Assembly (NCBI GenBank): GCA_046351535.1 | Contig: JAXLYG010000023.1 | Location: 1 to 64,000, forward strand | Direction of reading: 5' to 3' | Source: Polyangiales bacterium | GTDB taxonomy: Bacteria; Myxococcota_A; Polyangia; Polyangiales; Ga0077539 | Length of the DNA stretch: 64,000 bases | Shown here: piece after piece, positions 12,560 through 43,719 of the stretch | Numbering within the stretch: the stretch's first letter is position 1 | Layout of the letters: every line of letters starts with the position of its first letter | Translations under genes and position numbers: made by a program | Notes under the pieces: generated by a model | Databases searched by the model: none | The model's input: only the letters and a program-made list of their open reading frames with translations | Told to the model about the DNA's origin: nothing

Positions 12560-13573
12560 GTGGACATCCACTCAGCGACCGACAGCGCGGCGAAGGGCAA
12601 GCTGCTCCCGATCTATCTGCTCGCGGGCGACGAGCGACTGCTCATCACGCGATGCGCCGACGCGATCCGCGCGGCCACCGTCGGGGGCGGGCCGAGGGGT
12701 CTCTCGGAAGACCTCTTCGACGCGAAGCAGACGACGGGCGCGACGATCATCAACGCGTGCCGCACGCTCCCCATGATGGCGAAGCGTCGCCTCGTGGTGG
12801 TGCGCGGCGTCGAAGAGATGCGCAAGGCCGATCAGGAGACGCTGCTCCCCTACCTCGACAAGCCCGAGCCGAGCGCCGTGCTCCTGCTCGTGGGTCACGG
12901 CTTCGACATGCGTTTGAAGCTCGCGCTCACCGCGAAGGAGAAGGGCTTTCTCTTCGTCGCCAAGGCCCCGTCGGAGGGAGAGCTCGCGCCCTGGATCGAG
13001 CGCGAGGCCAAGGCCCGCGGCGCCACGCTGGAGCCCGGCGCGTCGGACTCGCTCGCGATGCTCATCGGCCCCGACCTGTCGCTCCTCGGCGACGCGCTCG
13101 AGCGGTTGCAGCTCTACACCGCGGGCGGTCCCATCACGACGCGCGCCGTCGACGAGGTGGTGACCGCGGTGCGAGAGATCCCCGCGTGGGACCTCGCCGA
13201 CGCGATCGGTCAGCGCAACGTCGCGTCGTGCATGACGATCCTCGCGCGGCTCACGGCGCAGCGGCAGCACGCGCTCCCGACGCTCGGGCTCATCGCGCGG
13301 CAGATCCACTCGCTCGCGAAGGCCAAGGCCAACGCCGAGGGCAAGCTCCCCGGCGCGCTCGCGTCGGTGCTCAAGATGCCCCCCTTCGCGGCCGACAAGG
13401 TCGCGCAGCAGGCGAAGAAGTGGACCTCGCCGCAGCTCTCGCGCGCGATCCGCGTGCTCGCGGCCACCGACGCGGCGCTCAAGGGCTCGAAGCGCGGCGA
13501 CGAGCGCGTGCTCGAGGAGTGCGTCATCGCCCTCTGCGGCGGACCGGGGATGGGCGAGGCCCCCTCGCGGTAG
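12560..13573 (+). CDS. holA: DNA polymerase III subunit delta
   Basis: LPIYLLAGDERLL...LVVVRGVEEMRKADQETLLPYLDKPEPSAVLLLVG and the C-terminal helical domain (QRQHALPTLGLIARQIHSLAKAK) are typical of HolA. Divergent from the M20 gene. Confidence 0.85.
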   Translation: MDIHSATDSAAKGKLLPIYLLAGDERLLITRCADAIRAATVGGGPRGLSEDLFDAKQTTGATIINACRTLPMMAKRRLVVVRGVEEMRKADQETLLPYLDKPEPSAVLLLVGHGFDMRLKLALTAKEKGFLFVAKAPSEGELAPWIEREAKARGATLEPGASDSLAMLIGPDLSLLGDALERLQLYTAGGPITTRAVDEVVTAVREIPAWDLADAIGQRNVASCMTILARLTAQRQHALPTLGLIARQIHSLAKAKANAEGKLPGALASVLKMPPFAADKVAQQAKKWTSPQLSRAIRVLAATDAALKGSKRGDERVLEECVIALCGGPGMGEAPSR

Positions 13574-13628
13574 CGCCCCCTCCGCGCGACCCTGTTTTTC
13601 GGCGCCGTGATACCGTCCGCGCGTTGCC

Positions 13629-14486
13629 ATGAAGCCAGGGGCTCGCGCGACCGACATGCATGTGTGCCCGCAGTTCACCGGGCCCATCCCCCACGTAGGC
13701 GGACCGATCATCCCCGCGGCGCCGACGCCGACGCAGGCCGAGACGCTCCAGGCCGCGCGGCTCGCGGACTACGCGTTCTGCGTGGGCCCTCAAGACGTGG
13801 TCTTTCAGGGCGCCTCGACGGTGCTCGTCGGGGGCCTGCCCTTCGCAGGTCGGTTCGACTCCACGGCGCACTCGGGGGTCATCATGATGGCCGCGAGCAC
13901 GGTGATGCTCGGCGGCCCGACCTTCTCGCTCCCGCCCAACTTCAGGGTGCGCGGCGGCGCGGCCTTTCAGAACGCCACGATCCGCGACCTCTACTACCTC
14001 TCGACGCTCCCGTCGGGTCGCGCGCTCATGCAGCGCCTCGAAGACTCTGGCGAGACCATCACCTTCGTGCCCGAGAGCGACCCCCACAACTCGTTCTGCT
14101 CGCCCGCGAGCGACTTTCTCGCGCGCCACGGCATCCCGACGGGATCGACCGTGAGCTACAACCCCGACGTCGCGCTGCGCGCGTATGACTCGGGCAACAA
14201 CCTCATCGACATGCCCCCGCAGGCGGTGCTCGGCCACGAAATGGTGCACGCGCTCAACAACGCCGAGGGCACGCATCACTACGGCACCGACCCCGCGGGC
14301 CCGGCCACGCAGCCCGGCATCGAAGAAGAAGAGTCTTCGGCCATCGGAACGGGCAGCCACAGCGGCGACTACCCGACCGAGAACGACCTCCGCAACGACA
14401 TGGGCGGAGGCGTCGGGCGACGCGACAACCACTACGGGCAGAACACCCCGGCGCCCACCGGCAACCGCCGCCCCGGAGGCTACTGA
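13629..14486 (+). CDS. PAAR-like (DUF4150) polymorphic toxin with C-terminal HExxH metallopeptidase-like domain
   Basis: N-terminus (MHVCPQFTGPIPHVGGPIIPAAP...VLVGGLPFAGRFDSTAHSGV...MLGGPTF) matches the PAAR_like/DUF4150 spike-tip fold. C-terminus carries GHEMVHALNNAEGTHHYG followed by an acidic run (IEEEESSAIGTG), i.e. HExxH plus a downstream Glu as in NleD/M91-like or Tox-MPTase domains. Confidence 0.8.
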   Translation: MKPGARATDMHVCPQFTGPIPHVGGPIIPAAPTPTQAETLQAARLADYAFCVGPQDVVFQGASTVLVGGLPFAGRFDSTAHSGVIMMAASTVMLGGPTFSLPPNFRVRGGAAFQNATIRDLYYLSTLPSGRALMQRLEDSGETITFVPESDPHNSFCSPASDFLARHGIPTGSTVSYNPDVALRAYDSGNNLIDMPPQAVLGHEMVHALNNAEGTHHYGTDPAGPATQPGIEEEESSAIGTGSHSGDYPTENDLRNDMGGGVGRRDNHYGQNTPAPTGNRRPGGY

Positions 14487-14491
14487 CCGCC

Positions 14492-15067
14492 ATGAACGTC
14501 TCGCTGCGCTTCACACACCGCTTCGACGGCCGCGACCTCGTCATCGCGTGGACCTTCGCCAACCGCGAGTCCGCGGAGCTCGGCGTCTTCAACCTCATCG
14601 AGGTCGTGCGCCCCGACGGGACGCTGAGCTTCTCGCCCGAGGTCGCCTGGGTCGAGTTCGACGAGGGCGTGCTCACGGTCTCGCAGCGCGCCCTCGCCGC
14701 GCCGCCGGGCCTCGCGATGGCCGCGCGCGTGCCGCCTTCGTGCTCGCGCCTCGCGGCGAGCGCCGACAGCGCGGGAGAGGTCCGCGTCCCGCTGCCGCTG
14801 CGCGTGATGCACACGTATCGCCGCGCGGCGCTCGGCGGACAGGTCGTGGCCGATGTGCCCCGCGAGGCGAGCGTGCTGCGCTTCTCGATGGGCGTGTTTC
14901 CCCTCGACGACCGGTGTCGCCTCGCGGCGGAGCAGCCCGCGTTCCCCGAGGTGTTCTCCGCGCTCCCTCCGGGCGCCGCGCTCGCGCGACAGGAGATCGT
15001 GAGCGCCGAGGTCGCGCTCGCGCACCCCGTCGCGGTGCTCGATTACCGGAGCGTGCCTTGGGACTGA
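14492..15067 (+). CDS. putative immunity protein for upstream PAAR toxin
   Basis: Starts 3 bp after the toxin stop on the same strand. 191 aa, no signal peptide, non-repetitive composition. Its position downstream of a polymorphic toxin is the main evidence. Confidence 0.55.
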   Translation: MNVSLRFTHRFDGRDLVIAWTFANRESAELGVFNLIEVVRPDGTLSFSPEVAWVEFDEGVLTVSQRALAAPPGLAMAARVPPSCSRLAASADSAGEVRVPLPLRVMHTYRRAALGGQVVADVPREASVLRFSMGVFPLDDRCRLAAEQPAFPEVFSALPPGAALARQEIVSAEVALAHPVAVLDYRSVPWD

Positions 15068-15483
15068 GGTGGCTCCCGCTCGCGGGGTTCGTGGCCGCGT
15101 GCGCCGCGACGCCCGCGCGGGTTCAGGTCGACCGCGAGGCCGCGCTCGCGCTCGGACAGCGCGCGGTCTTTCACGCCGCGCACGGCTGCGAGGTGCTCTT
15201 CGAACGCGTCGTCGAAGACGGACGCTGCCCGCGGGGGCGGCAGTGCGCCGCTTCGAACCCCGTGCGGGTGAGCGTGCGGATCACCTGCGCGGGCAGCGCG
15301 CGCAGCGAGGAGCTCGCCGTGCTCGACCGCGACGTGGGCGAGCCGCGCATGCAGGGCGTGAGGTCGTGCGCGCCCATCGACGGCGCCGTGCTTCGCCTGC
15401 GCGACGTGACGCCGTACCCCGGCGCGTCGTCGGAGCGAACGCGCGCGGTCCTCGTCGTCGAAGGGCGCTGCGGCGGGCCTTGA
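15058..15483 (+). CDS. small Cys-rich lipoprotein
   Basis: In-frame TTG/CTG start near 15058-15064 (LRWLPLAGFVAACAATP: lipobox VAAC). 6 Cys in ~140 aa. Overlaps the stop of the upstream gene. Start codon uncertain. Confidence 0.4.
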   Translation: MGLRWLPLAGFVAACAATPARVQVDREAALALGQRAVFHAAHGCEVLFERVVEDGRCPRGRQCAASNPVRVSVRITCAGSARSEELAVLDRDVGEPRMQGVRSCAPIDGAVLRLRDVTPYPGASSERTRAVLVVEGRCGGP

Positions 15484-15510
15484 AAACAGTGCGTTCGAGG
15501 GGTTCGACGC

Positions 15511-17796
15511 TCAGCAGTTGAGCTTCACGAGGGCGCCGGTCACCTCGGCGTTGGCGTTGAGGTTCACCTGCGCGCCGCCCGACGAGGTCATCGTCGCGTT
15601 GCTCGTGAGGTTCACCGCCGCGCCGCCGTTGGAGTGCATGTTGGCGTCGGCCGTGAGGTGCACCATCCCGCCGCCGCTGCCGTGCATGTTGGCGTCGGCC
15701 GTGAGGTACACCTGCGCCCCGTCGTGGGCGTGCATGTCAGCGTTGGCGGTGAGGTACACCTGGGCCCCGTCGGCGGACTTGAGGTCGGCGTTTCCCGTGA
15801 GATAGAGCTGCCCGCCGCCCGAGGCCGTCATGCGCCCGTTGGCGTCGAGGTAGACCTCGGCGCCGCCGCCCGCCACGAGCTTGATGTGGCCGGGGTACAT
15901 CTCGATCTTGCTCCCGCCGCACTCGAAGATGATCGAGTCGGGCGCGGTCATCTTGATGTTCTGCGACACCTCGACGATGTAGTCGCCGGTCACGTTGAGC
16001 TTCGCGCCGTGAAAGTCTCCGCGACCCGCGCCGTCGACGGTGGTGATCTGGTTGCCGTGCACGTGGATGGTCTCGTTGCCCCCCACGCCGAGGGAGCGGC
16101 TCCCTCCCACCGACACGCTCTGGCTGCCGTCGACGCGCATCGTGTGGTTGTGGAGCACCTTCTCGTCGAGGTCGCGCTGCGCGTGCATGTGGATGAGCTC
16201 GTGCCCCGCGGCGTCCTCGAAATAGAGCTCGTTGTAGCCGTTGCCGCCCGGTGAGCTGTTCGTTCGAATGATGCTGCGCGTGGGGTTGGCCTCGAGCTGG
16301 TCGACGGGCGGCGGCGGGTGGTTGTCGAGGTTGTAGACGCAGCCCGTGATGAGCGGACGGTCGGGGTTGCCATCGAGGAAGGTGACCACCACCTCCATGC
16401 CCACGCGGGGGTTGAACACCACGCCCCAGCCCGCGCCCGCCCACGTCTGCGCCACGCGGATCCAGCACGAGCTGTACTTCGACTGCTGCGCGCGCGACCG
16501 CAGCTCGGGGCGCTCCCAATGGAAGCGCACGAGCACGCGGCCGTAGAAATCAACGCACACCTCGGCGTTGGGCGCGCCGGGCATCGCCATCACCTGCGCC
16601 GTCTGCGCGCCGTGGATGCGCGGCCGTCGCACGGTCCTCGCGGGGCGGTACACGGTGCCCTCGGGGACGAGCGTGAACTTGTTCCCGTAGCGCTCCTCGT
16701 CGACGGGCGGATGCGGGTCGTGATCGCCCTCGGCCACGCGGCCCCAGTGCTCTGCCGTGACGATGGTGAAGGGACCCTTCTCGGCGCCGTCTTCGTCGGT
16801 GACCGTCACGCGTCGACCGGGCATGAAGCCCGTGACCACGCCGCGCCCGCTCCAGGTCTCGGCCTGCACCGTGCGCTCGGCGAGGCGCTGCGAGGCGCGC
16901 GTCGCGAGGTCGTTGTTCGCGTAGTAGTGGTCGGCGTTGTAGTCGTAGAAGGTCGCCTCGGCGGGGTAGTCGTAGAGCGAGCGCTCGCCAGCAGATGCGG
17001 GCGACGACTGCGTGGTGGCGGCCTCGCGACCGGGCGACGACTCGTCGGCGCGGTAGGGATGGGTGAAGTCCCAGTCGCGCAGGGTCACGCCCGTGGGCGC
17101 GAGCGCGAAGCGCGTCTCGAGCACGCGCACGCTCTCGGTGTCGAGCGTCGATCCCCCTTCGCCCATCACCGGCACCGCGCCCGCCGCGATCGTGGGGACC
17201 ACCTCGGCGAACGCGTCGACGGCGCTGTCGTCGGCCAGCACGAGCTGCTCGCCGCCCGCCTCGTGGCGGAAGTAGTACGTCACGCCCTCGTCGGCGAGGA
17301 GGCGCTGGATGAAGTCCAGGTCGGTCTCCTGGTACTGCACGCAGAACTCTCGAACGGGGTGCGACTCCATGCGAACGGCCGACGTGTCGAGGCCGCTGTC
17401 GCCCTGGTAGACGCCCGCCGCAGCGAGCACCTCGCGCACCACGTCGATCGCGTGGAGGTCCTGAAAAACACGGCAATCGCGGCGCTGCGAGAGGAGCCAC
17501 AGCGAGGGCACGAGGAGCGCCCGCACGTGGCGCCGACGCACCACGGCGCCGAGGTCTTCGGCGGCGCGAATGACGCCCGCCACGCGACGCGTGAGGGCGC
17601 CGCGGGTGATGGTGAAGGTCGCGGGTCGACCGAGGAGCCCGCGCAGGTCGGAGCGCTCGTCTTCCCACAGGTCGATGACGGCCTCGTAGACCTCGGAGAG
17701 GCCCTCGTGGAGCCTGAAGCTCCGCACCTTCCAGCCCGTCGCGGGCCCGACGGCCCCGCGAAACTCGTAGTCTGCCTCGGGGAGCAGGTCGCTCAT
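15511..17796 (-). CDS. vgrG: type VI secretion spike protein VgrG with C-terminal repeat extension
   Basis: ATG at 17796 (MSDLLPEADYEF...). gp27-like and gp5/OB regions (RFHWERPELRSRAQQSKYSSCWIRVAQTWAGAGWGVVFNPRVGMEVVVTFLDGNPDRPLITGCVYN) and a beta-helix (IHMHAQRDLDEKVLHNHTMRVDG...). The last ~115 aa are degenerate ~15-aa repeats (GAQVYLTANADMHAH...). Confidence 0.9.
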   Translation of the reverse strand: MSDLLPEADYEFRGAVGPATGWKVRSFRLHEGLSEVYEAVIDLWEDERSDLRGLLGRPATFTITRGALTRRVAGVIRAAEDLGAVVRRRHVRALLVPSLWLLSQRRDCRVFQDLHAIDVVREVLAAAGVYQGDSGLDTSAVRMESHPVREFCVQYQETDLDFIQRLLADEGVTYYFRHEAGGEQLVLADDSAVDAFAEVVPTIAAGAVPVMGEGGSTLDTESVRVLETRFALAPTGVTLRDWDFTHPYRADESSPGREAATTQSSPASAGERSLYDYPAEATFYDYNADHYYANNDLATRASQRLAERTVQAETWSGRGVVTGFMPGRRVTVTDEDGAEKGPFTIVTAEHWGRVAEGDHDPHPPVDEERYGNKFTLVPEGTVYRPARTVRRPRIHGAQTAQVMAMPGAPNAEVCVDFYGRVLVRFHWERPELRSRAQQSKYSSCWIRVAQTWAGAGWGVVFNPRVGMEVVVTFLDGNPDRPLITGCVYNLDNHPPPPVDQLEANPTRSIIRTNSSPGGNGYNELYFEDAAGHELIHMHAQRDLDEKVLHNHTMRVDGSQSVSVGGSRSLGVGGNETIHVHGNQITTVDGAGRGDFHGAKLNVTGDYIVEVSQNIKMTAPDSIIFECGGSKIEMYPGHIKLVAGGGAEVYLDANGRMTASGGGQLYLTGNADLKSADGAQVYLTANADMHAHDGAQVYLTADANMHGSGGGMVHLTADANMHSNGGAAVNLTSNATMTSSGGAQVNLNANAEVTGALVKLNC

Positions 17797-18350
17797 GCTC
17801 GGCTCCAATCCGGTCCGTGGAGGGTGTGAAAGCTGATCTGACAGGTGCCCGGCACGATGCCCTCCTCGCGCGCGCGGCCGTGACGGTCGAGGGTGCCCGC
17901 GCGAACGCCGCCGTCGGGCATCGTGATGCGATAGGGGACGTCGGCCATGTCGCGCCCGTCCTGATCGACGAGGTGGATCTCGATCCAGCTCGTGTCGTGC
18001 GGCGAGTCGGGCGCCTCGGGCTCGTCGGCGGGGTCGCTCCCGAAGGCCGCCGTGGGCCTCGCGCGCGTCACGCGATACGCCACCACGCGCCGCACGCGGA
18101 GGGCGTCGGCGACGCGGCGCACGAGCTCGTCGGCCTCGACCCACGAGGCGTCGTCCACGGCGGATCCGAGCGTGCGCAGCACGTCGAGGAGCGCGCCGCG
18201 GAGCCACACGTCATCGCGCAGGCAGCGCTCGATGAAGGCCGCCGCCGCCTCGCGGTGGAGCTTCACCCCGCGCGTCTCGGTGGTCACGTCGCTCGGGAGG
18301 TAGAGGGTCACCTCGCCGTCACCGTCAGGGAGTCTCGTGAGGTACCGCAT
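17793..18350 (-). CDS. hypothetical protein in vgrG operon (185 aa)
   Basis: ATGA overlap with the vgrG start, and 4 bp after the upstream gene stop. Sequence MRYLTRLPDGDGEVTLYLPSDV... No family recognised. Could be an adaptor/chaperone or immunity component. Confidence 0.6.
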   Translation of the reverse strand: MRYLTRLPDGDGEVTLYLPSDVTTETRGVKLHREAAAAFIERCLRDDVWLRGALLDVLRTLGSAVDDASWVEADELVRRVADALRVRRVVAYRVTRARPTAAFGSDPADEPEAPDSPHDTSWIEIHLVDQDGRDMADVPYRITMPDGGVRAGTLDRHGRAREEGIVPGTCQISFHTLHGPDWSRA

Positions 18351-18354
18351 GCGC

Positions 18355-20253
18355 TCACTCCAGCGGCGAGAGGACCGCCGCGCCGTTCGCGCGGATGCGG
18401 GCCTCCTGCGCGATGCCCACGGCGGGCGTGTCGTAGGCCACGGCGGCCTCGTCGAAGCGCTTGCTGCCGTCGACGGGGTGATCGCCCGACGTTCCGTTCC
18501 GCATCACCTGCGTGTTCACCGTCGCGTGGATCGCGTCGAGCATCACGTGCCCGCACTCGTGCGGTCCGCTCACGGGGTTGTTGTCGGTGCCGTCCATCAC
18601 GATCTGCGCGACGGTCGCCGAGCGGATCACCTGCGCGATCGCCTGGCGCCCCGCCGTGTAGATGTTCCCCGGCATGAGGGCCTGCCCGCGGTCGCCTGAG
18701 GTGTGCGCGCCGATGACGAAGAGGTCGATGCGGTCGCTGCCCGTGTCGTAGGCCTGCGCGAGCACGCGCTGCTGGATCGACCCGATGACCCAGTCCTGCC
18801 GACCGCCCGCGGCCCAGCCCACGAAGGCGCCGACGTTCACGCGCCCCACGGTGATCGTCTGCGAGGGATCATTCGCGGCGAGGGCCTCGACGGTCACGCG
18901 TCCGCCGTCGGGGTCCGTGATCACGATGTCCGCGGAGCCTCCCGCGATGGTGACGTCGAGCGGCGGCGGGTTCTGCACCACGCGCACGTTGAAGGTCCCG
19001 TCGGCGTTGATGAGCGCCGCGAGCGCGTTGGCCGTCGTGATCGGCGTGTCGCCCGCGGTGAACGCGCGCGGACCGATGACCGCGACCTTGTCGGCCACGC
19101 CCGCCCTCGTCGCGCGAAGCGTGAAGCGCGCCTGACGCCCCGCGCCGCCCGTCGCGTTCGCGCCCGTGTAGTCCGAGACGGAGATGAGGTTCTCGAGGGG
19201 ATCGACGGTGCGCACGAGCTTGAGGTCGGGCGCCATCGAGATCTGCGCGTAGAGCCTGCGCCACCACTTGAAGACGCGGACGCGCGCGTCGTCTTCGGTC
19301 ACCACGCCCGCCGCGCCCGGCGCCGTTCGCACGATGTGAACCGCGAGCGCGATGCGTGAGCGGGTGGCGCCGCCGACGGTGGCGCGCGCGGCGACGACCT
19401 CGCCCGACGAGCCCGTGTAGCGCACGCGGACGTACTGCCCGAGGATGTCGACGGCGTGATCGGTCGAGTCCCAGTCGGTGAGGAGCGTCTGCGTGGGCGC
19501 CGCGGCGAGGTCCTGGTCGTCGACGACGAGGCGCAGGTAGCGCGAGCGAAAGCGCTTCGTCCCCGCGACGCGGTGGAGCTCGACCTGCAGCGTGCGCGCG
19601 GGCGCGAAGTCCGCCGGGTCGTGGTCGAGGGGGATCCAGAGGCGCTCGCCCACGTGAATCACATTGGGGTCGGGATGCGCCGCGGCCCACGCGCGGTTGC
19701 GCGGGTGCAGCGTGATCGTGCGCCAGTCTTCGATGCCGTAGCGCGCGGCGATGCGCGAGAGCGACTCGCCCGCCGCGACGACGTGCGTGCGCCCGTTCCG
19801 CAGCGCTTCGAGCGTGACGCGCGCCGCGGGGATCGAGTCTCCCCCTTCGCCCTCGTCTTCGACCTCGATCTTGAAGTTGTCCCGGTCCGTCGACGGGTCG
19901 GTGAAGCCCGCGGGGAGGTCCGCGGTGGTGACGCGGTTGCTCACCTCGACGCGCGTGCGCACCACGGCGGCGGGCGCGGCGGGAGCCCCGAGGTCGTCGA
20001 CGATGCGCACCACCGCGGGCTTCGCGACGACGGCCCTGAACTCGTGGATCGACTCGGTGCCGCCCGCGAGGACCTTCACCTCGGGGTCGGGGATGGTCAC
20101 CGCGTCGCCGGGGAGGCACTTCCACGTCTCGTGTCGCTTCGCGCGGAGGGCGGCGTTGGCCGCGTGGTCCCAGATCGCGCGCCACGACGCGAAGCCGTTC
20201 TCCTTCGCGTAGCGGGTGAAGCTGTCTCCCTCCGCGTAGCGCACGGTCCTCAC
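18355..20253 (-). CDS. LysM-domain protein with C-terminal HExxH motif (candidate T6SS cargo/effector)
   Basis: Two LysM-like segments (YAEGDSFTRYAKENGFASWRAIWDHAANA...PGDAVTIP; HVVAAGESLSRIAARYGIEDWRTITLHPRN...GERLWIP). C-terminal GPHECGHVMLDAIH (HExxH). 632 aa. 4-bp overlaps with both neighbours. Confidence 0.7.
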   Translation of the reverse strand: MRTVRYAEGDSFTRYAKENGFASWRAIWDHAANAALRAKRHETWKCLPGDAVTIPDPEVKVLAGGTESIHEFRAVVAKPAVVRIVDDLGAPAAPAAVVRTRVEVSNRVTTADLPAGFTDPSTDRDNFKIEVEDEGEGGDSIPAARVTLEALRNGRTHVVAAGESLSRIAARYGIEDWRTITLHPRNRAWAAAHPDPNVIHVGERLWIPLDHDPADFAPARTLQVELHRVAGTKRFRSRYLRLVVDDQDLAAAPTQTLLTDWDSTDHAVDILGQYVRVRYTGSSGEVVAARATVGGATRSRIALAVHIVRTAPGAAGVVTEDDARVRVFKWWRRLYAQISMAPDLKLVRTVDPLENLISVSDYTGANATGGAGRQARFTLRATRAGVADKVAVIGPRAFTAGDTPITTANALAALINADGTFNVRVVQNPPPLDVTIAGGSADIVITDPDGGRVTVEALAANDPSQTITVGRVNVGAFVGWAAGGRQDWVIGSIQQRVLAQAYDTGSDRIDLFVIGAHTSGDRGQALMPGNIYTAGRQAIAQVIRSATVAQIVMDGTDNNPVSGPHECGHVMLDAIHATVNTQVMRNGTSGDHPVDGSKRFDEAAVAYDTPAVGIAQEARIRANGAAVLSPLE

Positions 20254-21107
20254 GGCGAAGCCTCCGGCGCGAGCACGGCGCGGAGGCTCCCCGCGGCGCG
20301 CAGCTCGGTGACCTCTTCGGCGCTGAGGTCACCGCCGAAGACCTGCACCGCGGCGAGGGCCTTCGCGCGCTGCCCCGCGGGCGCGTCGTCGCCCATGCGC
20401 GCGAGGCACCGTCGAAACGCGGCCATCGGACGCGACGGGTCGCTGAACCCGACGCGCGCGAGGAGCCACACGCACGCGGGTTCGAGGTGCTCGCGCCAGG
20501 TCATGTCGCGGCCGACGTAGACGTCGGCGCAGCGATCGAGGCGCGCCTCCTCGGAGGGCTGCGCGGTGATGCTCCGCCACGCCGCGAGGGCCTCGGTGAG
20601 CCGCGGAAGGGCGACGTCGCGCACGTCGGCGGCCTCGCGCGCGAGGAGGCCCGCCTGCGGGTCGCGCGACGAGACCTGCTCGCGAACGAAGCCGTCGAGG
20701 CGAGCGCTCAGCGTCGAGGCGTCACCGAGCGCCCACGCGACGGGGAGGAGCTCGGCGAAGCGATCGTTCCAACGCGGGTGCTGCGCGATGGGCGCGAAGG
20801 CGGCGGAGGCCTCTTCGCGGGCGCGCGTGTCACCGACGAGGGCGACGGCGCGAACGGCCTGTGCAGCCACGGCGAGGGCGTTCGCGTCGCGGCCTTCGGG
20901 GCGCATGCGAGGGCGCCACGCGTCGACGGCGGCGTCGAGGTGATAGAAGGCCGTGAGCTCCGCGAGGCGCGTCGCGGGCATCGGGGCGAGGTCTGCCGCG
21001 CGGAGCTGCTCGACGACGAAGCGCTCGACCTCTTCGCGCGGGAGCCCCGAGGGGAAGCGATCGGCGCGAGGGTCGAAGTGCGCGACGTAGTCGTGGAGGG
21101 TGGTCAT
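20250..21107 (-). CDS. hypothetical alpha-helical protein, first gene of vgrG operon (286 aa)
   Basis: ATG at 21107 (MTTLHDYVAHFDPRADRFPSGLPREEVERF...). No signal peptide. Ala/Leu/Arg-rich helical protein. 4-bp overlap with the downstream LysM gene. Size and position fit a T6SS adaptor (DUF4123-like) but the similarity is not established. Confidence 0.55.
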   Translation of the reverse strand: MTTLHDYVAHFDPRADRFPSGLPREEVERFVVEQLRAADLAPMPATRLAELTAFYHLDAAVDAWRPRMRPEGRDANALAVAAQAVRAVALVGDTRAREEASAAFAPIAQHPRWNDRFAELLPVAWALGDASTLSARLDGFVREQVSSRDPQAGLLAREAADVRDVALPRLTEALAAWRSITAQPSEEARLDRCADVYVGRDMTWREHLEPACVWLLARVGFSDPSRPMAAFRRCLARMGDDAPAGQRAKALAAVQVFGGDLSAEEVTELRAAGSLRAVLAPEASP

Positions 21108-21345
21108 CGAAGGGCTCCCGCGTTGGGGCGGCGGTGCGGGCGGAGCGAGCGCGCGCGCGTCGGACGAGCGCGCAGGGCGCGACCTCGTCGCAGGACATGC
21201 GAGGAGGAGGAGGAGAGAGAGGCACCAGCGTCGCGTCACCGCGCCCACGGCGCGAATGAGAGCGACAGTGTGAAGAGCGTGTCAACGGCCCACCGCGCGA
21301 TGCGCAGCGCGCAGCGCGCGCGCCGACGCGCATCGACTTCGCGGG

Positions 21346-22194
21346 CTACTCGTCGGCGACGGTGTTGCGCAGCACGCCGACGCCGCGCACCTCGACCTCG
21401 ACCACGTCGCCGCGCTTCATGAACACGGGCGGATCGCGCTTCCACCCGACGCCGCCGGGGGTTCCCGTGGCGATCACGTCGCCGGGGACGAGCTCGGTGA
21501 AGGCCGAGATGTACTCGATGAGCGCCGGCACATCGAAGATGAGCAGGTCCGTCGTCGACCGCTGCATCTCGTCGCCGTTGAGGCGCAGCACCACCTCGAG
21601 CTTCGAGGGATCGGGTAGCTCCTCGGGCGTCACGAGCCACGGGCCGAGGCCCGCCGTCGCGACGAAGTTCTTGCCCGGCGTGAACTGCGTCGTGTGCCGC
21701 TGCCAGTCGCGCACCGACGCGTCGTTGAAGCACGCGTAGCCCGCGACGTGCGCGAGCGCGTCTTCGCGGGCGACGTGTCGCGCGGGCTTGCCGATGATCA
21801 CCGCCATTTCGGCTTCGAAATCGAGCTGCGACGAGACCCTCGGGCGAACGAGCGCGCCGCCGTGGCCCACGAGCGTGTTGGCGAAGCGCGTGAAGAGCGT
21901 CGGGTACGGGACCGCGTCGCGGCCCGTCTCGAGCCTGTGCGCCACGTAGTTCACGCCGACGCAGAACACCTTGTCGGGCGACGGGATCACCGGGTCGAAG
22001 GCCACGGCGTCGAGCGCGACGTCGGCCGAGCGCTGGAGCGCGTAGTCGGCGATCTCCGCGAGCGCGCCGCGGTCGAGCGCGCTTCGAAGCGTCGGGAAGC
22101 GTCCGTCGAGGTGCCTCCCCACGTCGACGATCCCCTGATCGATGACGACGCCCCACGAGGCGACGGAGTCGATGCGATAGCTTGCGAGTCGCAT
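21346..22194 (-). CDS. fumarylacetoacetate hydrolase (FAH) family protein
   Basis: DKVFCVGVNYVAHRLE...EAEMAVIIGKPARHV...LVPGDVIATGTPGGVG are classic FAH-fold motifs. Confidence 0.85.
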   Translation of the reverse strand: MRLASYRIDSVASWGVVIDQGIVDVGRHLDGRFPTLRSALDRGALAEIADYALQRSADVALDAVAFDPVIPSPDKVFCVGVNYVAHRLETGRDAVPYPTLFTRFANTLVGHGGALVRPRVSSQLDFEAEMAVIIGKPARHVAREDALAHVAGYACFNDASVRDWQRHTTQFTPGKNFVATAGLGPWLVTPEELPDPSKLEVVLRLNGDEMQRSTTDLLIFDVPALIEYISAFTELVPGDVIATGTPGGVGWKRDPPVFMKRGDVVEVEVRGVGVLRNTVADE

Positions 22195-36168: not shown

Positions 36169-39100
36169 TCACTCCTTGCGTCGCGGCGCACCGGGCGGCG
36201 GAGGCACGTCGCCGCCCGAGGGGACGAAGGTCAACGCAGCGAGGGCGTCGAGCGAGGGCGCGTCGTCGGAGTCCGAGAGGCTCACCTCGACGTCACCCGC
36301 ATCGACCTCCTCGGCGTCCGAGACGCTCAGCTCGTCGAGGGCGTCGAAGGGAGAGGGTGCAGGCGGTGCAGACGCCTGGGGCTCCGCAGGAGGCGCAGGG
36401 GGCGCCGACATCCGCGGCAGCGGCGGCGGGAACGACGGCGACGGATCAGGCTGCGCAGCCGCGGCGACGGGCGCGATGGGCGCAGGCGCGGCGGGCCACA
36501 CGGGGCGAACCTCTTCGGCATCGGCGACGAACTCCGCCGACACCTCGGGCGCGTCGAGGAAGCTCTGCCCCGCAGGGTTCGCCTCGCTCACGCTGGGGAA
36601 CGAAGGCGGCGAGGGCATCCGCGGCGGAGACACCTGCGCGAGCGCGGCCCCGAGGTTCGCAGGCGGCGGCACCGTCGGCGTCTCGGCGACATCCTCGTGG
36701 AAGCGAAGCGGCGGGGCCTCGGCGCTCGCATCACCGAACGACGACGCGCCGAAGAGCGGCTGCGCGGCGGGCGCGACCGGCATCGCAGGAGGCGCCTCGT
36801 ACGCGGGCTGCTGCGCGTACTCGGGCTGCGCCGGATACTGCGGCGGCGCGACGAACTCGGCCTGCGCCGGGTACTGCGGCTGCGCTTCGTACTGCGGCTG
36901 GGCTTCGTACTGCGGCTGCGCTTCGTACTGCGGCGCGGCCTCGTACTGCGGCTGCGCCTCGTAGGTCTGCGCGACCTCGTACGAGGGCGCGGCGTCGAAC
37001 ATCACCGTGGGCGGATCGTCGGCGGGGATGTTCCCTCGCTGCGTGACGGAGCCCTGCTCCTCCTCGGGCGCCGACGGGACCACGGGCGTCGTCGTCGCGG
37101 GCTCCGCGGGAGCCTCCTCGAAGGCCATGAGGTCGGCCTCGATGATCGTGGGCCTGCGCTCCAGGCGTTCGAGCGCGGCCTTCGCCTCCTCGTCGCCGGG
37201 GGCCATCTTCAGCACGCGGCGCCAGATGTCGCGCGCTTCGAAGACGTTCTTGATCCGCGTCTCCCAGATCACCGCCATGCGACGCATCACCGCCGCGCGG
37301 TCTCCGCCCGCGTCGATCTCACGCTCGAGCGCCATGAGCAGCGGCTGCCAGCGCTCGTGACGCTCCAGCAATGACTGGAGCGCGCGCAGCACGTCGATGT
37401 CCTTGGGGGCGAGCTCGGCGAGCCGCTGGTACGCCTCGATGGCCTCCTCGACGCGACCGAGACGGTCGGCCAGGAGCGACGCGCGACGCCCCGTGTACGT
37501 GCGCGCGGTGCGAGCCTCGTAGGCCTCGTCGATCACCTTGCGGTAGAGGGTCACCACCTCGCCGAGACGGTCCGCGCGACCCGCGGCGTCTTCGAGCGCA
37601 GCGGCGCCGCGGACGTCATCGGGCCACACCGAGACCGCGCGGGTGTAGAGCCCGAGCGCGTGATCGAGGAGCGCGAGCTCCTGCTCACACAGCGCGCCGG
37701 CGCGACGGAGCAGCACGGCGCCCACGCGGGGGTTGTCTTCGACGGCGTCTTCCGCGAGGCGCGCGTAGCGCTCGACGAGGCCCGAGACCATGCCCGCGTC
37801 GGCGCGACGCTGGTCGGCCTGGATGCAGGCGTTCTCGACGCGCGCGAGCATCTCCTCGTCGGGCTCCTTGCGGCCCACGGCCTGACCGATGGCCTGCTCG
37901 ACGTACTGAAAGGCCGTCTCGCGGTCACCGAGCGAGCCGCCCGCGGTCTCGGCCGCGCGGAGCGTCACGCCGAAGCGCTCGGAGTCCGACTGCGCCGCCT
38001 TCTTGCGGCGATCGAAGGCCACGAAGAGGTCCGCGTGGCGCTTCGCGTTGGGCACCAGCCGCACCACCGCGTCGAGGATCTCGTCGTCGGCAGGCGCCTT
38101 CGCGAGCGCCGCGAGCGCGAACTCGAAGGCCTGCGCCCGGCCGCCGCTGCCCTCGATGGCGTTGAGGCCGCGCATCGAGAGCTCGTGCGCGAGCGTCGGA
38201 TCGGTGCACCCGTCGAGCGCGGCTTTGTACGCCTCGGCCACGCGCTGCGGGCGCTTGACCTTCGAAGCGAGCGCGTCGATGTGCGTGAGGTCCTCGGCGT
38301 CGACCTTGGCCACCGCGGCGCTCACCCACGCTTCGAAGGCCCCCTCCGGGTCACCGAGGAAGGTCTCCTTGCGCCGCGCCACCTCGCGCCAGAGCATCGA
38401 GCGCCCTTCGCGGTCGCTCACGCGGTTCGAGAGCTCCGAGAGGATCGGCACGAGCGCCGCGTGGAGGTCACGCTTGTTCGACAGGTCGAGCATCATCTCG
38501 ATGCACGCGACGTCGCCGCTCTTCACGGGCGCGATGAGCACCTCCCAGGCGCGGTGCGCGTCGTCGAGCTTCTCATCCGAGAGGTGCGCGATGCGCTGCG
38601 CGAGCTTCGAGATCTCCTCGTCGTCGCCCTCGATCTCGATGAGCTGATCGAGGTAGCCCACGGCCTCGCGGTAGCGCCCCTCGGCCTCGCACATGTCCGC
38701 GAGGCGCTGGATCACACCGAGGTCGCCCTGATCGGCGCGGTGCTGGATCTCGAGCGCCTTGATGATCGCCTCGGGCGTCTTGACCTCGCGCTCGACCATC
38801 GTCACGAGTCGCGAGGCGTGATCGGCGCGACGCTCGTCGTCCTCTTCGGGCGTGAGGTCGACCTGACGCTCGATGGCCTCCGACGCCACGTCCCAGCGAC
38901 GCGCTTCGAGGGCCATCTTCTCGAGGAGCTCCCAGGTCTCGGCGTGATCGGCGCCGTGCTCTCGCGCGGCCGCGGCGAGGGCGTCGACGGCCTCGTCGAC
39001 CCGACCGAGCTCCGTCGCGAGGAGCTGCGCGCGACGCTTGAGGATCTCGCGCTTCGCCTCGCGATCCTTCGCGGCGGCGGCGGCTTCGATGAAGAGCCCC

Positions 39101-41316
39101 GCGAGCGCCTCGTTGTCGCCCTTGAGCTCGGCGATGCCCATGAGCGCTTCGAGCGCCTCGGAGTCATCTCCGAGCGCGGCGCGCATCGAGACCTCGCGAA
39201 GCTCACGCCACACGCCCGACGCGGCCACGGCGTCCGAGAGTCCGACGACCCTCGCCGCGCGGCGCAGGAGCTCGACCTTCGCCTCTCCATCCGGCAGTCG
39301 CGCGGTGCGCTCACGCACGAACGCGAGGAGCCGCTCACGCTGCCCCGACGCTTCGAGCGCGTTCATCAGGGCGCCCGCGAGCGAGTCGTCATCGGGCGCC
39401 ATCTTCACGGCGCGCTCGGCCTCTTCGAGCGCGGTGGCGGTGTCGCCCATCGCCCGCGCGGCGTCGGCGGCCCTCGCATGGAGCGCGGCCCTCGCGGGAC
39501 CTTCAGGCAGCGCCTCGGCGCGGTTGACGAGCGTCGCGTAGAGCTCTGCGTTCTGTCCCGCGCGCGAGAGGAGCCGTTCGAGCGTGGCCCAGCCTTCGGG
39601 GTACTCGGGGTTGCGACCCACGACCTCGCGCCACGCCTCGATGGCCTCGGGGAGCTGCCCCGCCTCTTCGCGCGCCGCGCCGAGCTCGGCCTGACGCTGC
39701 GTGATGTTCTCTTCGGTCGCGACGTCGACGCGCGCGCGCATCACATCGGCCGCGCCCGCGGGGTCACCCGAGTCGCGGCGGGCGCGCGCGAGCTTCAGCG
39801 CGACGGCGTCATCGTCGGGCGTGAGGTCCCACACCATCGCGAGGATGAGCGCCTCGCTCGACGGATCCTCGCGGCGCTCGCGGTGAACCTCGGCGAGCTT
39901 GAGCAGCGTGTCGCGCCGCTCCGTCGCATCGGGAACGAGGTCGGCGCACTGGCCGAGCACGTCGGCGTAGGCCTCCCACTGGCCGCTGCGTTCGAAGAGG
40001 GCCCCGAGGGCGCGCAGCGCGTCGAGGTCCGTGGGGATCGTCTCGACGACCTCGCGCCACGCCTCGATGGCCGACTCGACGTCGTTGAGGTTCTCGGCGT
40101 TGACCTTGCCGAGCTCGCGCAGCTTCGGGATGCGCACGTCGGGCGGGCATCCCGGCGAGCGCACCGCGTTGGCGATGAGGTCGCGCAGCTCTTCGAACTG
40201 CCCCTTCGCGCGGAGGTCGTCTTCGACGAGGGTGAGCGCGTCGGTGTCCGCGGGCGACTGCGCCAGCACGGCGCGCATCGTCGCGAGCATCGAGGCCCTG
40301 TCGCCGTGGGCTCCCTGGAGCACGGCGAGATCTTTCATGTCTTGCAGGCGCTGCTCGTCGCTCGACGAGGGCGCGAGCTGATCGATGAGGGCCGCGAGGT
40401 CCTGCACGCGGCCCGCCTGGCGGTAGAGCGCCGCGAGCTGGCGCGCGAGCGAGGGGTCGTCGTTGATGAGCGGTTCGAGGCAGGTGATGGCGTCGTCGAC
40501 CTGACCGACGGCGGCGTACATCTCCGCGAGGCTGCGGCGGATCGACGGCGTGTACGGGCTCGTGGGGTTCGTCGTGACGAAGGCGATCTGTCGTACGGCG
40601 AGGTCTTCGCCGCGGCCCGCGTTCGTGTAGGCCTCGTGAACGACCTGATAGGCCATTTCATCGCCGGGGTATGTGTCGAGCGCGATCTCGGCGAAGGCGA
40701 GCCCGTGCTCGGGGCCCATCGCTTGCGAGAGCGCGCCGAGCAGCGAGGCCGCGCGCGGCGCGTCGTCGGGCTGCGCCTGCGGAGACTGCGACCGCGCGAT
40801 GAGCGCCTCGGAGAGGTCGCGCATCACGTCCCAGTCGTCGGGCGAGAGCGAGTAGAGCTCTTCGAGGCACGCGATGCGACGGCCCGTGTCGTTGGCCTGC
40901 GCGTAGATGCCCGCGGCCTCGCGCAGCCTCGGGAGCCTCAAGAGCGGGTCGGAGATCGCGTTGAGGACGCGCTCCAGCAGCGGCGACGCGGCGCGGAGGT
41001 TCCCGATCTGGACGTAGATCTGGTAGCAGGCTTCGAGCGCGGGGAGCAGCGACGGATCGAGCTCGAACGCGCGCTTGTAGCAGGCCACCGCTTTGTCCGG
41101 TCGACCTACGTTCTTCGCCCAGATCTCGCCTGCCCGGTAGAAGAGATCCGCGGAAGACGCGGGGTCCGGGCGTCTCCCTGCGATCTGCTCGGCGAGCGTC
41201 GCGAGCTGTTGAAACTCCCCTCTCGACGCATAGTAGTCCCAGAGGAACGCGAGCGACTCGGCGTCATCGGGGTTGGCGCGCAGACGCTCGTAGTAGGCGT
41301 AGATCGTTGGGTCCAT
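36169..41316 (-). CDS. giant tetratricopeptide-repeat (TPR) protein, 1715 aa, with Pro/Ala/Gln-rich C-terminal tail
   Basis: Dozens of TPR-like helical hairpins (…AVACYKRAFELDPSLLPALEACYQIYVQIGNL…). The C-terminal ~350 aa are low-complexity and contain tandem YEAQPQ hexapeptides. Confidence 0.85.
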   Translation of the reverse strand: MDPTIYAYYERLRANPDDAESLAFLWDYYASRGEFQQLATLAEQIAGRRPDPASSADLFYRAGEIWAKNVGRPDKAVACYKRAFELDPSLLPALEACYQIYVQIGNLRAASPLLERVLNAISDPLLRLPRLREAAGIYAQANDTGRRIACLEELYSLSPDDWDVMRDLSEALIARSQSPQAQPDDAPRAASLLGALSQAMGPEHGLAFAEIALDTYPGDEMAYQVVHEAYTNAGRGEDLAVRQIAFVTTNPTSPYTPSIRRSLAEMYAAVGQVDDAITCLEPLINDDPSLARQLAALYRQAGRVQDLAALIDQLAPSSSDEQRLQDMKDLAVLQGAHGDRASMLATMRAVLAQSPADTDALTLVEDDLRAKGQFEELRDLIANAVRSPGCPPDVRIPKLRELGKVNAENLNDVESAIEAWREVVETIPTDLDALRALGALFERSGQWEAYADVLGQCADLVPDATERRDTLLKLAEVHRERREDPSSEALILAMVWDLTPDDDAVALKLARARRDSGDPAGAADVMRARVDVATEENITQRQAELGAAREEAGQLPEAIEAWREVVGRNPEYPEGWATLERLLSRAGQNAELYATLVNRAEALPEGPARAALHARAADAARAMGDTATALEEAERAVKMAPDDDSLAGALMNALEASGQRERLLAFVRERTARLPDGEAKVELLRRAARVVGLSDAVAASGVWRELREVSMRAALGDDSEALEALMGIAELKGDNEALAGLFIEAAAAAKDREAKREILKRRAQLLATELGRVDEAVDALAAAAREHGADHAETWELLEKMALEARRWDVASEAIERQVDLTPEEDDERRADHASRLVTMVEREVKTPEAIIKALEIQHRADQGDLGVIQRLADMCEAEGRYREAVGYLDQLIEIEGDDEEISKLAQRIAHLSDEKLDDAHRAWEVLIAPVKSGDVACIEMMLDLSNKRDLHAALVPILSELSNRVSDREGRSMLWREVARRKETFLGDPEGAFEAWVSAAVAKVDAEDLTHIDALASKVKRPQRVAEAYKAALDGCTDPTLAHELSMRGLNAIEGSGGRAQAFEFALAALAKAPADDEILDAVVRLVPNAKRHADLFVAFDRRKKAAQSDSERFGVTLRAAETAGGSLGDRETAFQYVEQAIGQAVGRKEPDEEMLARVENACIQADQRRADAGMVSGLVERYARLAEDAVEDNPRVGAVLLRRAGALCEQELALLDHALGLYTRAVSVWPDDVRGAAALEDAAGRADRLGEVVTLYRKVIDEAYEARTARTYTGRRASLLADRLGRVEEAIEAYQRLAELAPKDIDVLRALQSLLERHERWQPLLMALEREIDAGGDRAAVMRRMAVIWETRIKNVFEARDIWRRVLKMAPGDEEAKAALERLERRPTIIEADLMAFEEAPAEPATTTPVVPSAPEEEQGSVTQRGNIPADDPPTVMFDAAPSYEVAQTYEAQPQYEAAPQYEAQPQYEAQPQYEAQPQYPAQAEFVAPPQYPAQPEYAQQPAYEAPPAMPVAPAAQPLFGASSFGDASAEAPPLRFHEDVAETPTVPPPANLGAALAQVSPPRMPSPPSFPSVSEANPAGQSFLDAPEVSAEFVADAEEVRPVWPAAPAPIAPVAAAAQPDPSPSFPPPLPRMSAPPAPPAEPQASAPPAPSPFDALDELSVSDAEEVDAGDVEVSLSDSDDAPSLDALAALTFVPSGGDVPPPPGAPRRKE
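36800..36965. repeat. 15/18-bp tandem repeat encoding (YEAQPQ)n inside the TPR gene
   Basis: ctgcgcttcgtactgcgg units repeated ~8 times on the plus strand (minus-strand sense QYEAQP). Confidence 0.75.
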
Positions 41317-41382
41317 CGCGAGCGGCGCGACGGTATCACGCTGCGACCCGGCCGGAACAACTCCCGTCGAGCCTTCGAAGTG

Positions 41383-42825: not shown

Positions 42826-43682
42826 TCAGTGCTGACCGGTGAGGACCTGCGCGGGCGCGGTGAGGATCTGCGTGGGGTTGGCGCCCTGCACGCCGGGGAT
42901 CGGGAGCCCCTGCCCTCCCCCGTTGTTGAGACCGGGAACGGGCACCGGGAAGGTGTTCTGCGACGACTGCCCGCCCGCGATGCCGGGGATGGGCACGCCG
43001 GGGATCGGTCCCGCGCTCGCGCCGTTGTTCATGCCGGGGATCGCAGGCGTCGGGATCGCCGGAGGACGCCCCGTGCCCGACTGGAACCACGACTGCCCCA
43101 TCGAGCGCGCGCCCGCATAGACAGCCTGTGCGGCGGCCATGCAGGGCGTCTCGAGGAGCCCGCGATGCTCCGAGCGACAGATCGCGTTGAGGTCTTCGTG
43201 GAGGCGGTCGTCGATGCGCGTGCGACGGCCCTCGGTGCGGTCGAGGGCGAGGCCGGTGCCGCCATAGTTCCGGTAGCCGAAATCGTGGCGGTTGCAGGCG
43301 CGGTTGAAGCTCTCGCGGAACGGCCCGCTGATCTCCCCGAAGGAGCACCCGTCGGCCGACCAGTCGAAGGGCGGCGGATGGAGCGCGCGCATGTTCTGAA
43401 AGGTCTCGAGCGGGAGGTTCATGTACCCGTCGGCGGTCATCACGAGGAGCTGCCTCGGCGCATTGGCCGGGAGCGGCGTTCCGAGCGCGGTTCCGCGCGA
43501 GCGCGTGGCGCGACCGCGGGAGCGACCCGACGAGGCCGTGGCGGGGCTGTTGCCGAGCGCGCCGTTCATCACGTTGGTGGCCGCCCCGACCATCTGATCG
43601 ATGGGGACGTTCTGCGCAGAGACCGTGGGCGAGAGGGCCGCGACGGCGACCCCGAGCGTGAAGGCCGTGACGTACGTTCGCA
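42826..43682 (-). CDS. secreted prokaryotic phospholipase A2 (Phospholip_A2_3-like) with Pro/Gly-rich C-terminal tail
   Basis: ATG near 43682 (MRTYVTAFTLGVAVAALSPTVSAQ). DGCSFGEISGPFRESFNRACNRHDFGYRNYG matches the catalytic His-Asp segment of Streptomyces-type secreted PLA2 (…ACARHDFGYRNY…). C-terminal IPGxx repeats. Confidence 0.75.
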
Positions 43683-43719
43683 TGGCGGGCAACGGTGCTC
43701 GAAAGAGGGGCGCCGTGCA

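Follow-up and report, generated by a model that had tools for sequence, protein, structure and literature searches.

We analyzed a stretch of 64,000 nucleotides from a Polyangiales bacterium (contig JAXLYG010000023.1, positions 1 to 64,000; the whole stretch is called the window below), which carries a gene island around vgrG, the spike gene of type VI secretion systems (T6SS). As an auxiliary vgrG effector island the locus is of an ordinary kind. It contains a putative metzincin-like effector/immunity family that had not been characterised before, together with a proposed stand-alone adaptor that has a transthyretin-like (TTR) domain.

The vgrG island and its spike

The G+C content of the window is ~72%, and genes were called by codon-position GC. 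The whole island spans positions 13629-21248 and consists of the following genes:

20250-21107 (possibly to 21248), minus strand: gene A, 285 aa (long form 332 aa)
18355-20253, minus strand: gene B, 632 aa, predicted LysM / beta-sandwich / metzincin-fold zinc metallopeptidase
17793-18350, minus strand: gene C, 185 aa, stand-alone, with a C-terminal transthyretin-like (TTR/prealbumin-fold) domain
15511-17796, minus strand: gene D, VgrG/TssI spike, 761 aa, start MSDLL at ATG 17796
13629-14486, plus strand: gene E, PAAR tip protein fused to a Peptidase_M91 (HopH1/NleD-like, HEMVH) domain
14492-15067, plus strand: gene F, 191 aa, without signal peptide
15058-15483, plus strand: gene G, 141 aa, TTG start, predicted lipoprotein (MGLRWLPLAGFVAAC)

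The G+C content at third codon positions (GC3) of A, B, C and D is 0.91-0.95, which bears out the four co-directional minus-strand genes of a preliminary description of this DNA. That description had linked all four by 4-bp overlaps. Such overlaps are present at the junctions A/B (GTGA) and C/D (ATGA), with GGAG(G) ahead of each, but a 4-nt spacer (TGA-GCGC-ATG) lies between B and C. At all three junctions the genes are nevertheless close enough for their translation to be coupled. The extent of four genes was too short, since the plus-strand operon E-F-G, which runs convergent with vgrG, had been missed; besides its spike (VgrG), the complete island encodes a tip toxin (PAAR-M91) together with a cargo set.

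The product of D scored 441.2 bits with TIGR03361 (cutoff 186.35) and 309 bits with TIGR01646. In Pfam it matched Phage_GPD (222.7 bits) as well as Phage_base_V and Gp5_trimer_C. The original vgrG call thus passes searches for gp27-like and gp5-like domains, and judged by these matches D is a true T6SS VgrG (TssI). Comparison with solved VgrG structures in the PDB gave E-values from 5e-72 (entry 7q5p) to 1e-68. A longer VgrG reading frame of 898 aa, starting at GTG 18207, was rejected as an artefact, the GC3 of its 5' extension being only 0.53. D carries no TTR or toxin domain at its own C-terminus. Its C-terminal extension is built from 16-residue repeats (..GAQVYLTANADMHxxx..) and is encoded by a repeat detected with Tandem Repeats Finder and translation:

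15545-15868, minus strand: 48-nt tandem repeat, 6.8 copies, 72% match

Through slippage this extension could change its length.

Pfam scans of the GC3-supported open reading frames (ORFs) of the 64-kb window, made by ORF and not exhaustive, matched no T6SS core family and no sheath, tube or baseplate family. The label "orphan", which had been given to the island because no core genes were seen nearby, therefore holds for the scanned ORFs.

In the convergent operon, E matched the Pfam models PAAR_motif with 41.4 bits (cutoff 27) and Peptidase_M91 with 60.3 bits (cutoff 25), and a weak XopG/HopH match (29 bits) stayed under its cutoff of 150. The PAAR part is 42-53% identical to the PAARs of the homologous loci described below. 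With both domains above the Pfam thresholds, E looks like an ordinary PAAR-Peptidase_M91 (Tox-HopH1) toxin. HopH1-type peptidase toxin domains are known among T6SS polymorphic toxins (PMC3482391); the PAAR-fused HopH1/NleD-type toxins of that set (Peptidase_M91, Tox-HopH1) have the same architecture as E and are likewise followed by small putative immunity genes, with no notable difference. F follows E after a 5-nt spacer. It has a GC3 of 0.93, is 94% conserved in the close relative L008 and matches no family in Pfam, NCBIfam or PHROGs; we regard it as a candidate cytoplasmic immunity protein for E. The first 10 nt of G overlap the end of F, and 27 nt lie between its end and the vgrG stop codon. 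A first-start ORF list buries this TTG-start gene inside a spurious 432-aa ORF. In the reading frame of G, GC3 rises abruptly from about 0.5 to 0.95 at position 15070. G has no family match in Pfam, NCBIfam or PHROGs. It is 91% identical over all 141 residues to a gene at the same position in L008, and its N-terminus (MGLRWLPLAGFVAAC) contains a lipobox. It is possibly a second immunity protein.

Gene B, its neighbour A and their conservation

The preliminary description of B as a 632-aa protein with two LysM-like segments and a C-terminal HECGH motif (residues 565-569) was confirmed. The features of the protein map as follows:

20089-20253, minus strand: B residues 1-55, N-terminal LysM-like module, beta-alpha-alpha-beta in the model
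19624-19797, minus strand: B residues 153-210, second LysM module, with Pfam LysM and PHROG matches
18358-19311, minus strand: B residues ~315-632, predicted metzincin-like catalytic domain, approximate boundaries
18502-18561, minus strand: predicted active site of B, H565-E566-x-x-H569, H576 and M584 (HECGHVMLDAIH...QVM)

A homologue search with B returned only 39 clusters, all "hypothetical", from Polyangia, Acidobacteriota and similar groups. PDB profile searches with the family yielded only non-significant matches. Beyond the weak LysM, B belongs to no effector or adaptor family of Pfam, NCBIfam or PHROGs, and neither do A and C, as had been supposed for these three proteins from the sequence alone.

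In an alignment of 31 homologues, H565, E566 and H569 of B are invariant, as are K598, R599 and a central motif (FRSRYLRLVVDD), while H576 and M584 are kept in at least 90% of the sequences. An AlphaFold2 model calculated from this alignment (predicted local distance difference test, pLDDT, 92; predicted template modelling score, pTM, 0.88) adopts a metzincin catalytic fold, with ulilysin, mirolysin, ADAMs and fragilysin as the nearest folds. The extended metzincin motif HExxHxxGxxH/D is not present in B, which has HExxH-x6-H with the Gly replaced, so that H576 lies one residue further along than the canonical third His. M584 follows 8 residues after H576 and is a candidate for the Met-turn beneath the zinc site. 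The motif aligns with HEIGHLLGAEH..DLM of the fragilysin-like protein 4on1, and M584 with the Met of that protein, at a non-significant E-value of 0.39. The best Pfam metzincin match was Reprolysin_5, sub-threshold (E 0.012) in four other members of the family. Because of its motif we term B metzincin-like and not a canonical metzincin. Known metzincins (ulilysin/pappalysin M43, mirolysin, adamalysin/ADAM M12, fragilysin M10) have HExxHxxGxxH/D; B differs from them also in having no signal peptide, in its T6SS context and in reaching the threshold of no Pfam metzincin model. The fold itself is confidently predicted to be that of a metzincin-like protease. In the literature that we searched, such a fold was not found described for T6SS effectors.

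For the first LysM module, Pfam LysM matches were obtained in 5 of the 31 family members (best E 1.3e-8). It is present in the homologues of every locus in which B adjoins a TTR domain and missing from the Polyangia homologues whose loci contain a DUF4123 protein. The second module matches Pfam LysM with 22.2 bits (cutoff 20.9) over residues 157-174 and PHROG endolysins and transglycosylases over residues 152-212. It is an insertion (alignment columns 301-370) found only in the closest (Myxococcota) relatives. B thus combines the beta-alpha-alpha-beta fold with a Pfam LysM match. The preliminary description had considered the protein as a peptidoglycan-targeting cargo of an auxiliary VgrG island. 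The island and the cargo are supported by the position of B homologues beside vgrG (see below), whereas "peptidoglycan-targeting" goes beyond the evidence: the predicted fold is that of a metzincin protease, and by analogy with characterised systems (PMC10673891, PMC11796386) the LysM module may chiefly be a means of mounting the effector on VgrG.

Signal peptides are missing from most copies of B. Five Polyangia-type homologues (P0006, P0007, P0009, P0011 and P0020) carry a lipoprotein signal peptide (..ALTVLAFGAFLTGC..) in place of the LysM N-terminus. In two loci of this lipobox type (L009 and L010, from Sorangium sp. So ce1128 and a Polyangiaceae metagenome-assembled genome, MAG), B lies behind VgrG-PAAR-FHA/DUF4123 and ahead of a second VgrG.

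To place the locus in a wider context we scanned one genome per GTDB species (185,579 species representatives), employing tblastn with family queries at the loci. B was found in 28 of these species, which belong to Myxococcota, Acidobacteriota, Planctomycetota, Verrucomicrobiota, Thermodesulfobacteriota and SAR324. The gene order is uniform, [tssF-tssG-clpV]-vgrG-TTR-B-A-(PAAR). B lies beside vgrG in 20 of the 28 loci, as it does in the five loci first examined, and in 6 of the other 8 the contig breaks off at B or close to it. VgrG follows tssF-tssG-clpV in about 14 loci. Wherever the contig was long enough for a judgement, none of the orthologues found for the upstream genes was unlinked to vgrG, so the proposed linkage stands. 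Orphan islands with B occur in the window and in L002, tandem B paralogues in L004 and a tandem duplication of the B-A pair in L025. The window and L008 have a mirror-image order, yet all genes are co-directional.

The family of A was found by BLAST against the neighbours of B homologues; a word-based search gave only near-identical sequences. A has no relative in Pfam (no match with E <0.1), NCBIfam, PHROGs or the PDB. In L001-L003 the gene that immediately follows B shares 30-32% identity with A, and homologues of A lie next to B in 23 of the 28 species loci. An N-terminal hydrophobic signal can be reached from an in-frame start in 19 of 24 family members, many of them with a lipobox. Because A is a constant neighbour of B and usually has a signal peptide, we read it as a periplasmic (lipoprotein) immunity protein of B from a helical, uncharacterised family. 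B and A accordingly display, at the genomic level, the conserved adjacency and the compartment-matched partner of an effector-immunity pair. A role of the small proteins of the island as adaptors or immunity proteins had been suggested before and agrees with these data on A and with the TTR-type domain of C.

A had been described as a helical protein of 286 aa; NCBI annotates this short form with 285 aa. A 141-nt extension upstream of ATG 21107, starting from GTG 21248, gives the long form of 332 aa, which thereby gains a lipoprotein signal (RRWCLSLLLLLAC). L007, which is 91% identical, keeps the frame of the extension through an in-frame 3-nt indel and keeps the lipobox as well, and the same holds for L008. 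On the other hand, ATG 21107 has the better Shine-Dalgarno sequence (GGGAG), the GC3 of the extension is only 0.79, and the annotated form is the short one. On balance we lean towards GTG 21248 and the lipoprotein form.

The conserved gene order also bears on what B does. In Acidobacteriota, Planctomycetota and other phyla, B and A lie inside the main T6SS cluster immediately behind clpV-vgrG in fixed order, much as core genes would. This would suit a quasi-structural, spike-associated enzyme that cuts the wall or envelope for passage of the spike, acting either on the wall of the producer during assembly (as TagX and MltE do) or on that of the prey (as does phage T4 gp5 lysozyme), while A would regulate it in the periplasm or provide self-protection. 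The lipoprotein signal of the Polyangia B proteins would place them in the producer's own periplasm and points in the same direction. We nevertheless regard this explanation as unlikely: with only 28 carriers among 185,579 species representatives, B is not general to T6SS; its orphan islands, tandem paralogues and duplicated B-A pair reflect the behaviour of an effector-immunity cassette; the signal peptide is absent from most copies of B and present on A; and the fold of B matches metzincin proteases and not known peptidoglycan hydrolases. In a stronger version, VgrG(TTR)-B-A would be a lineage-defining, near-core part of the T6SS in Acidobacteriota, Planctomycetota, some Myxococcota and related phyla, in which B opens the envelope and A guards. 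If this were true, the lipoprotein B of Polyangia would be the same enzyme re-routed via Sec/Lol to the periplasm of the producer. We judge this version to be quite unlikely.

A different target is suggested by the nearest folds of B, which belong to extracellular or host-directed proteases (ulilysin, mirolysin, ADAMs, fragilysin). Like these enzymes, B might be aimed at eukaryotic or extracellular proteins after delivery by the T6SS, A then being a chaperone or inhibitor. The partner toxin E belongs to the HopH1/NleD family, best known from host-directed effectors of type III secretion systems, and myxobacteria are predators with large repertoires of secreted proteases. The carrier phyla, however, are mostly free-living soil and sediment bacteria, and the tight, conserved pairing of B with a signal-bearing A is the mark of an antibacterial effector-immunity pair that acts in the periplasm, as in VgrG2b/PA0261 (PMC6899460). 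A host-directed B therefore appears improbable to us, and we prefer the reading of B as a periplasmic effector with A as its immunity protein.

The TTR domain of C and a proposed loaded spike

The recognisable part of C is its C-terminal domain:

17811-17999, minus strand: TTR-like domain of C, residues ~118-180

The C-terminal ~70 residues of C are 40% identical to a VgrG C-terminal extension in L004 (E 7e-15), and the VgrG concerned is the one preceding B. An AlphaFold2 model of C is confident only for residues ~120-175. Its best structural match, a modest one, is a chain of the VgrG spike of enteroaggregative Escherichia coli (EAEC) solved in complex with Tle1 (6sjl_A). C matches no adaptor family of Pfam or NCBIfam (no match with E <0.1). 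DUF4123 (Tap/Tec) and DUF2169, both suggested in the preliminary description, as well as DUF1795 (Eag), were found in neither A nor C; among the homologous loci, DUF4123 proteins are present only in those of the Polyangia type. The predicted domain of C is instead a transthyretin/prealbumin-like beta-sandwich of the kind that occurs at VgrG C-termini beside cargo genes. Relatives of the N-terminal ~100 residues of C were found only in P0040-P0042.

The TTR domain adjoins B in 22 loci. In 15 of these it forms the extreme C-terminus of VgrG, in 6 (among them L008, a 95% relative of the window) it makes up a small ORF of its own, and in one it is part of a PAAR-TTR-LysM fusion. In this last case, a Phycisphaerales MAG (L028, positions 2152-4062), a single ORF downstream of the B-A pair combines PAAR, a TTR-like domain and a B-type LysM N-terminal region, which represents a further fusion state of the loading modules. 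Since the TTR domain is otherwise fused to the VgrG C-terminus, we read C as a split-off loading adaptor, i.e. a free-standing VgrG TTR recruitment domain that would connect VgrG and effector. The possibility that C is a broken-off pseudogene fragment of VgrG was rejected: relatives of the same length (186 aa) exist elsewhere, the GC3 of C is 0.91, a full coding signature, and the gene is translationally coupled to vgrG.

Three informative loci are devoid of a TTR domain (L009, L010 and L029, all Polyangia). They contain PAAR and an FHA-DUF4123 adaptor, and their B has no LysM N-terminus. The LysM N-terminus of B and the TTR domain therefore come and go together.

An exhaustive HMMER search with a C-family profile gave hits in 4773 cluster representatives with 1-9 domain copies per protein. 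Pfam scans of ten hits identified four as VgrGs with the domain at the C-terminus; other hits combine it with CarboxypepD_reg/SpaA-type prealbumin folds or with Mu-type DNA_circ_N hub domains. In P0048, P0050, P0052, P0067 and P0074 the C-type TTR domain is found in 3-9 tandem copies together with an N-terminal DNA_circ_N domain and "Decapeptide" repeats. These tandem copies in DNA_circ_N proteins indicate that the module also decorates phage-like hubs. In other T6SS clusters short C-like genes (134 aa) sit between VgrG, which they follow directly, and a PG_binding_1 protein. C-like TTR proteins (134-186 aa) in L005, L006 and the locus of P0041, in L005 and L006 directly after VgrG, are followed by a PG_binding_1 protein of 214 aa and by proteins of 172 and 1043 aa. 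The stand-alone TTR adaptor may thus serve other cargo with peptidoglycan-binding domains, too.

The occurrence of the TTR-type domain in Mu-type hub proteins would be compatible with a remnant of a phage tail or of an extracellular contractile injection system (eCIS) in place of a T6SS, with B as an Afp7-like LysM protein and D as an Afp8-like spike. A LysM protein beside the spike is typical of eCIS (PMC10673891), and the VgrG of the window weakly matches Afp8 and phage central spikes. The match to Afp8 (E 8e-6) compares, however, with 5e-72 for T6SS VgrG structures and with the 441 bits on the TssI model; homologous loci elsewhere carry tssE, tssF, tssG, clpV and tssA; and the scanned ORFs of the window yielded none of the sheath, tube or baseplate families of an eCIS. 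We consider such an origin extremely improbable.

Based on these results we propose that the locus 13629-21248 is one complete "loaded spike" for a T6SS with its core genes elsewhere in the genome, an interpretation that we consider quite probable. VgrG (D) would form the trimeric spike. Its cap would be the PAAR-Peptidase_M91 protein (E), a toxin fused to the tip, against which F and/or G would confer immunity. B would be a cargo effector whose N-terminal, LysM-containing region docks onto the TTR domain. This domain, in most genomes a C-terminal extension of VgrG, would here be supplied in trans by the split-off adaptor C. After firing, the metzincin-type zinc peptidase domain of B would act in the periplasm of the target cell, where its substrate could be envelope proteins, lipoproteins or peptidoglycan peptides. 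The producer would be protected by A as a periplasmic lipoprotein. From the fusion pattern, and because LysM and TTR are either both present or both missing, we infer physical binding between C, B and VgrG. We likewise infer the toxicity of B, its neutralisation by A, its secretion and the periplasm as its probable site of action.

Several observations weigh against this proposal. A functional T6SS in this genome is an assumption. The third zinc ligand of B has the spacing HExxH-x6-H and not that of the metzincin motif HExxHxxGxxH, and the lipoprotein signal peptide of the five Polyangia-type homologues is hard to square with export by a T6SS. No signal peptide is present in 5 of the 24 A homologues, and in L004 two B paralogues share one A. 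The order A-B-C-vgrG mirrors the canonical one, cargo genes usually being located downstream of vgrG. The N-terminal ~100 residues of C are poorly modelled (pLDDT <50 for residues 1-33 and 86-119).

The individual steps have precedents. The LysM of toxins encoded in vgrG loci is needed for VgrG binding (PMC10673891). In Acinetobacter baumannii the N-terminus of Tae17, with an Ig and a LysM domain, binds the TTR domain of VgrG17 (PMC11796386). VgrG2b of Pseudomonas aeruginosa is a fusion of VgrG, TTR and an HExxH metallopeptidase; its toxicity is confined to the periplasm, and some species have lipoproteins as the immunity proteins against it (PMC6899460).

VgrG17-Tae17 (PMC11796386) resembles the proposed arrangement in that a cargo with a LysM in its N-terminal region docks on a C-terminal TTR of VgrG, the toxin acts in the periplasm (as we suppose for B) and the genes are adjacent to vgrG. 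The toxin domains differ, being a lytic transglycosylase and an amidase in Tae17 and a predicted metzincin-fold metallopeptidase in B. Tae17 furthermore has an Ig-like domain ahead of the LysM, and its TTR is part of VgrG17, while here the TTR resides on the separate 185-aa protein C, encoded upstream of vgrG. No sequence homology was detected between the two systems. VgrG2b/PA0261 (PMC6899460) shares with our locus the combination of VgrG spike, TTR-like linker and HExxH zinc metallopeptidase. There the three modules form one polypeptide, here they are distributed over three genes (D, C and B). By analogy with its periplasmic toxin and envelope-targeted immunity protein, a lipoprotein in some species, the pair B-A may be read in the same way; A (~300 aa, helical), for its part, has no detectable relation to any known family. 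The LysM effectors of vgrG loci described by Wang et al. 2023 (PMC10673891) have, like B, an N-terminal LysM on a toxin encoded at vgrG. Unlike B, the validated cases contain an NlpC/P60 toxin domain (BRPE_05220) or use a separate downstream toxin (Kalk_10455). That screen covered only the region downstream of vgrG and listed no TTR domain, whereas here the effector is encoded upstream of vgrG and has two LysM modules. In EAEC VgrG1-Tle1 (PDB 6SJL), finally, Tle1 is a phospholipase without LysM and the TTR is fused to VgrG1; the modest match of this structure to C comes from a model in which no more than the C-terminal domain is confident.

By sequence, B and A have no relative in Pfam, NCBIfam or the PDB, and they define a putative T6SS effector/immunity family that is uncharacterised. 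The family is broad but rare, and the soil and sediment phyla that carry it are nearly unstudied for T6SS biology. That the TTR domain is fused, split off or absent in step with the LysM N-terminus of the effector lends independent comparative support to a TTR-LysM loading mechanism proposed earlier from work on Acinetobacter and Burkholderia, and it suggests that the TTR module can also function as an adaptor on its own. The locus offers a toxin/antitoxin pair that can be put to the test and a candidate for a new class of adaptors; the general understanding of T6SS is unchanged.

Other features of the window

A scan of positions 13400-21500 for promoter and terminator consensus sequences found nothing, and there were no Rfam or tRNA matches anywhere in the window. 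Besides the island, the genes identified with Pfam include holA and those for an M20 peptidase, an FAA hydrolase, a flavin reductase, a Ser/Thr kinase, RecA, a USP-family protein, a giant TPR protein, a PGA_cap protein, a phospholipase A2, M16 peptidases and a major-vault-protein-like protein.

Three regions are noted in addition. Between ~49000 and 53000 the G+C content falls to 0.61-0.65 and the GC skew is strongly negative (-0.28 at 52-53 kb). This stretch has few ORFs with the GC3 signature of the genome and, as elsewhere in the window, no tRNA or Rfam matches; it may be foreign or non-coding DNA. A protein with a prokaryotic phospholipase A2 domain (42826-43869, minus strand) adjoins the PGA_cap protein and a TPR-rich protein of 1737 aa. 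It was noted together with the region 36169-41382 (minus strand); no link between these genes and the VgrG island was seen. The vault-like gene at 4468-6945 (minus strand) encodes a bacterial protein of 825 aa that combines the shoulder (MVP_shoulder 98 bits) and repeat domains of the major vault protein with SPFH/Band 7, and it adjoins a gene for a hybrid of GAF, histidine kinase and receiver domains (2735-4441).

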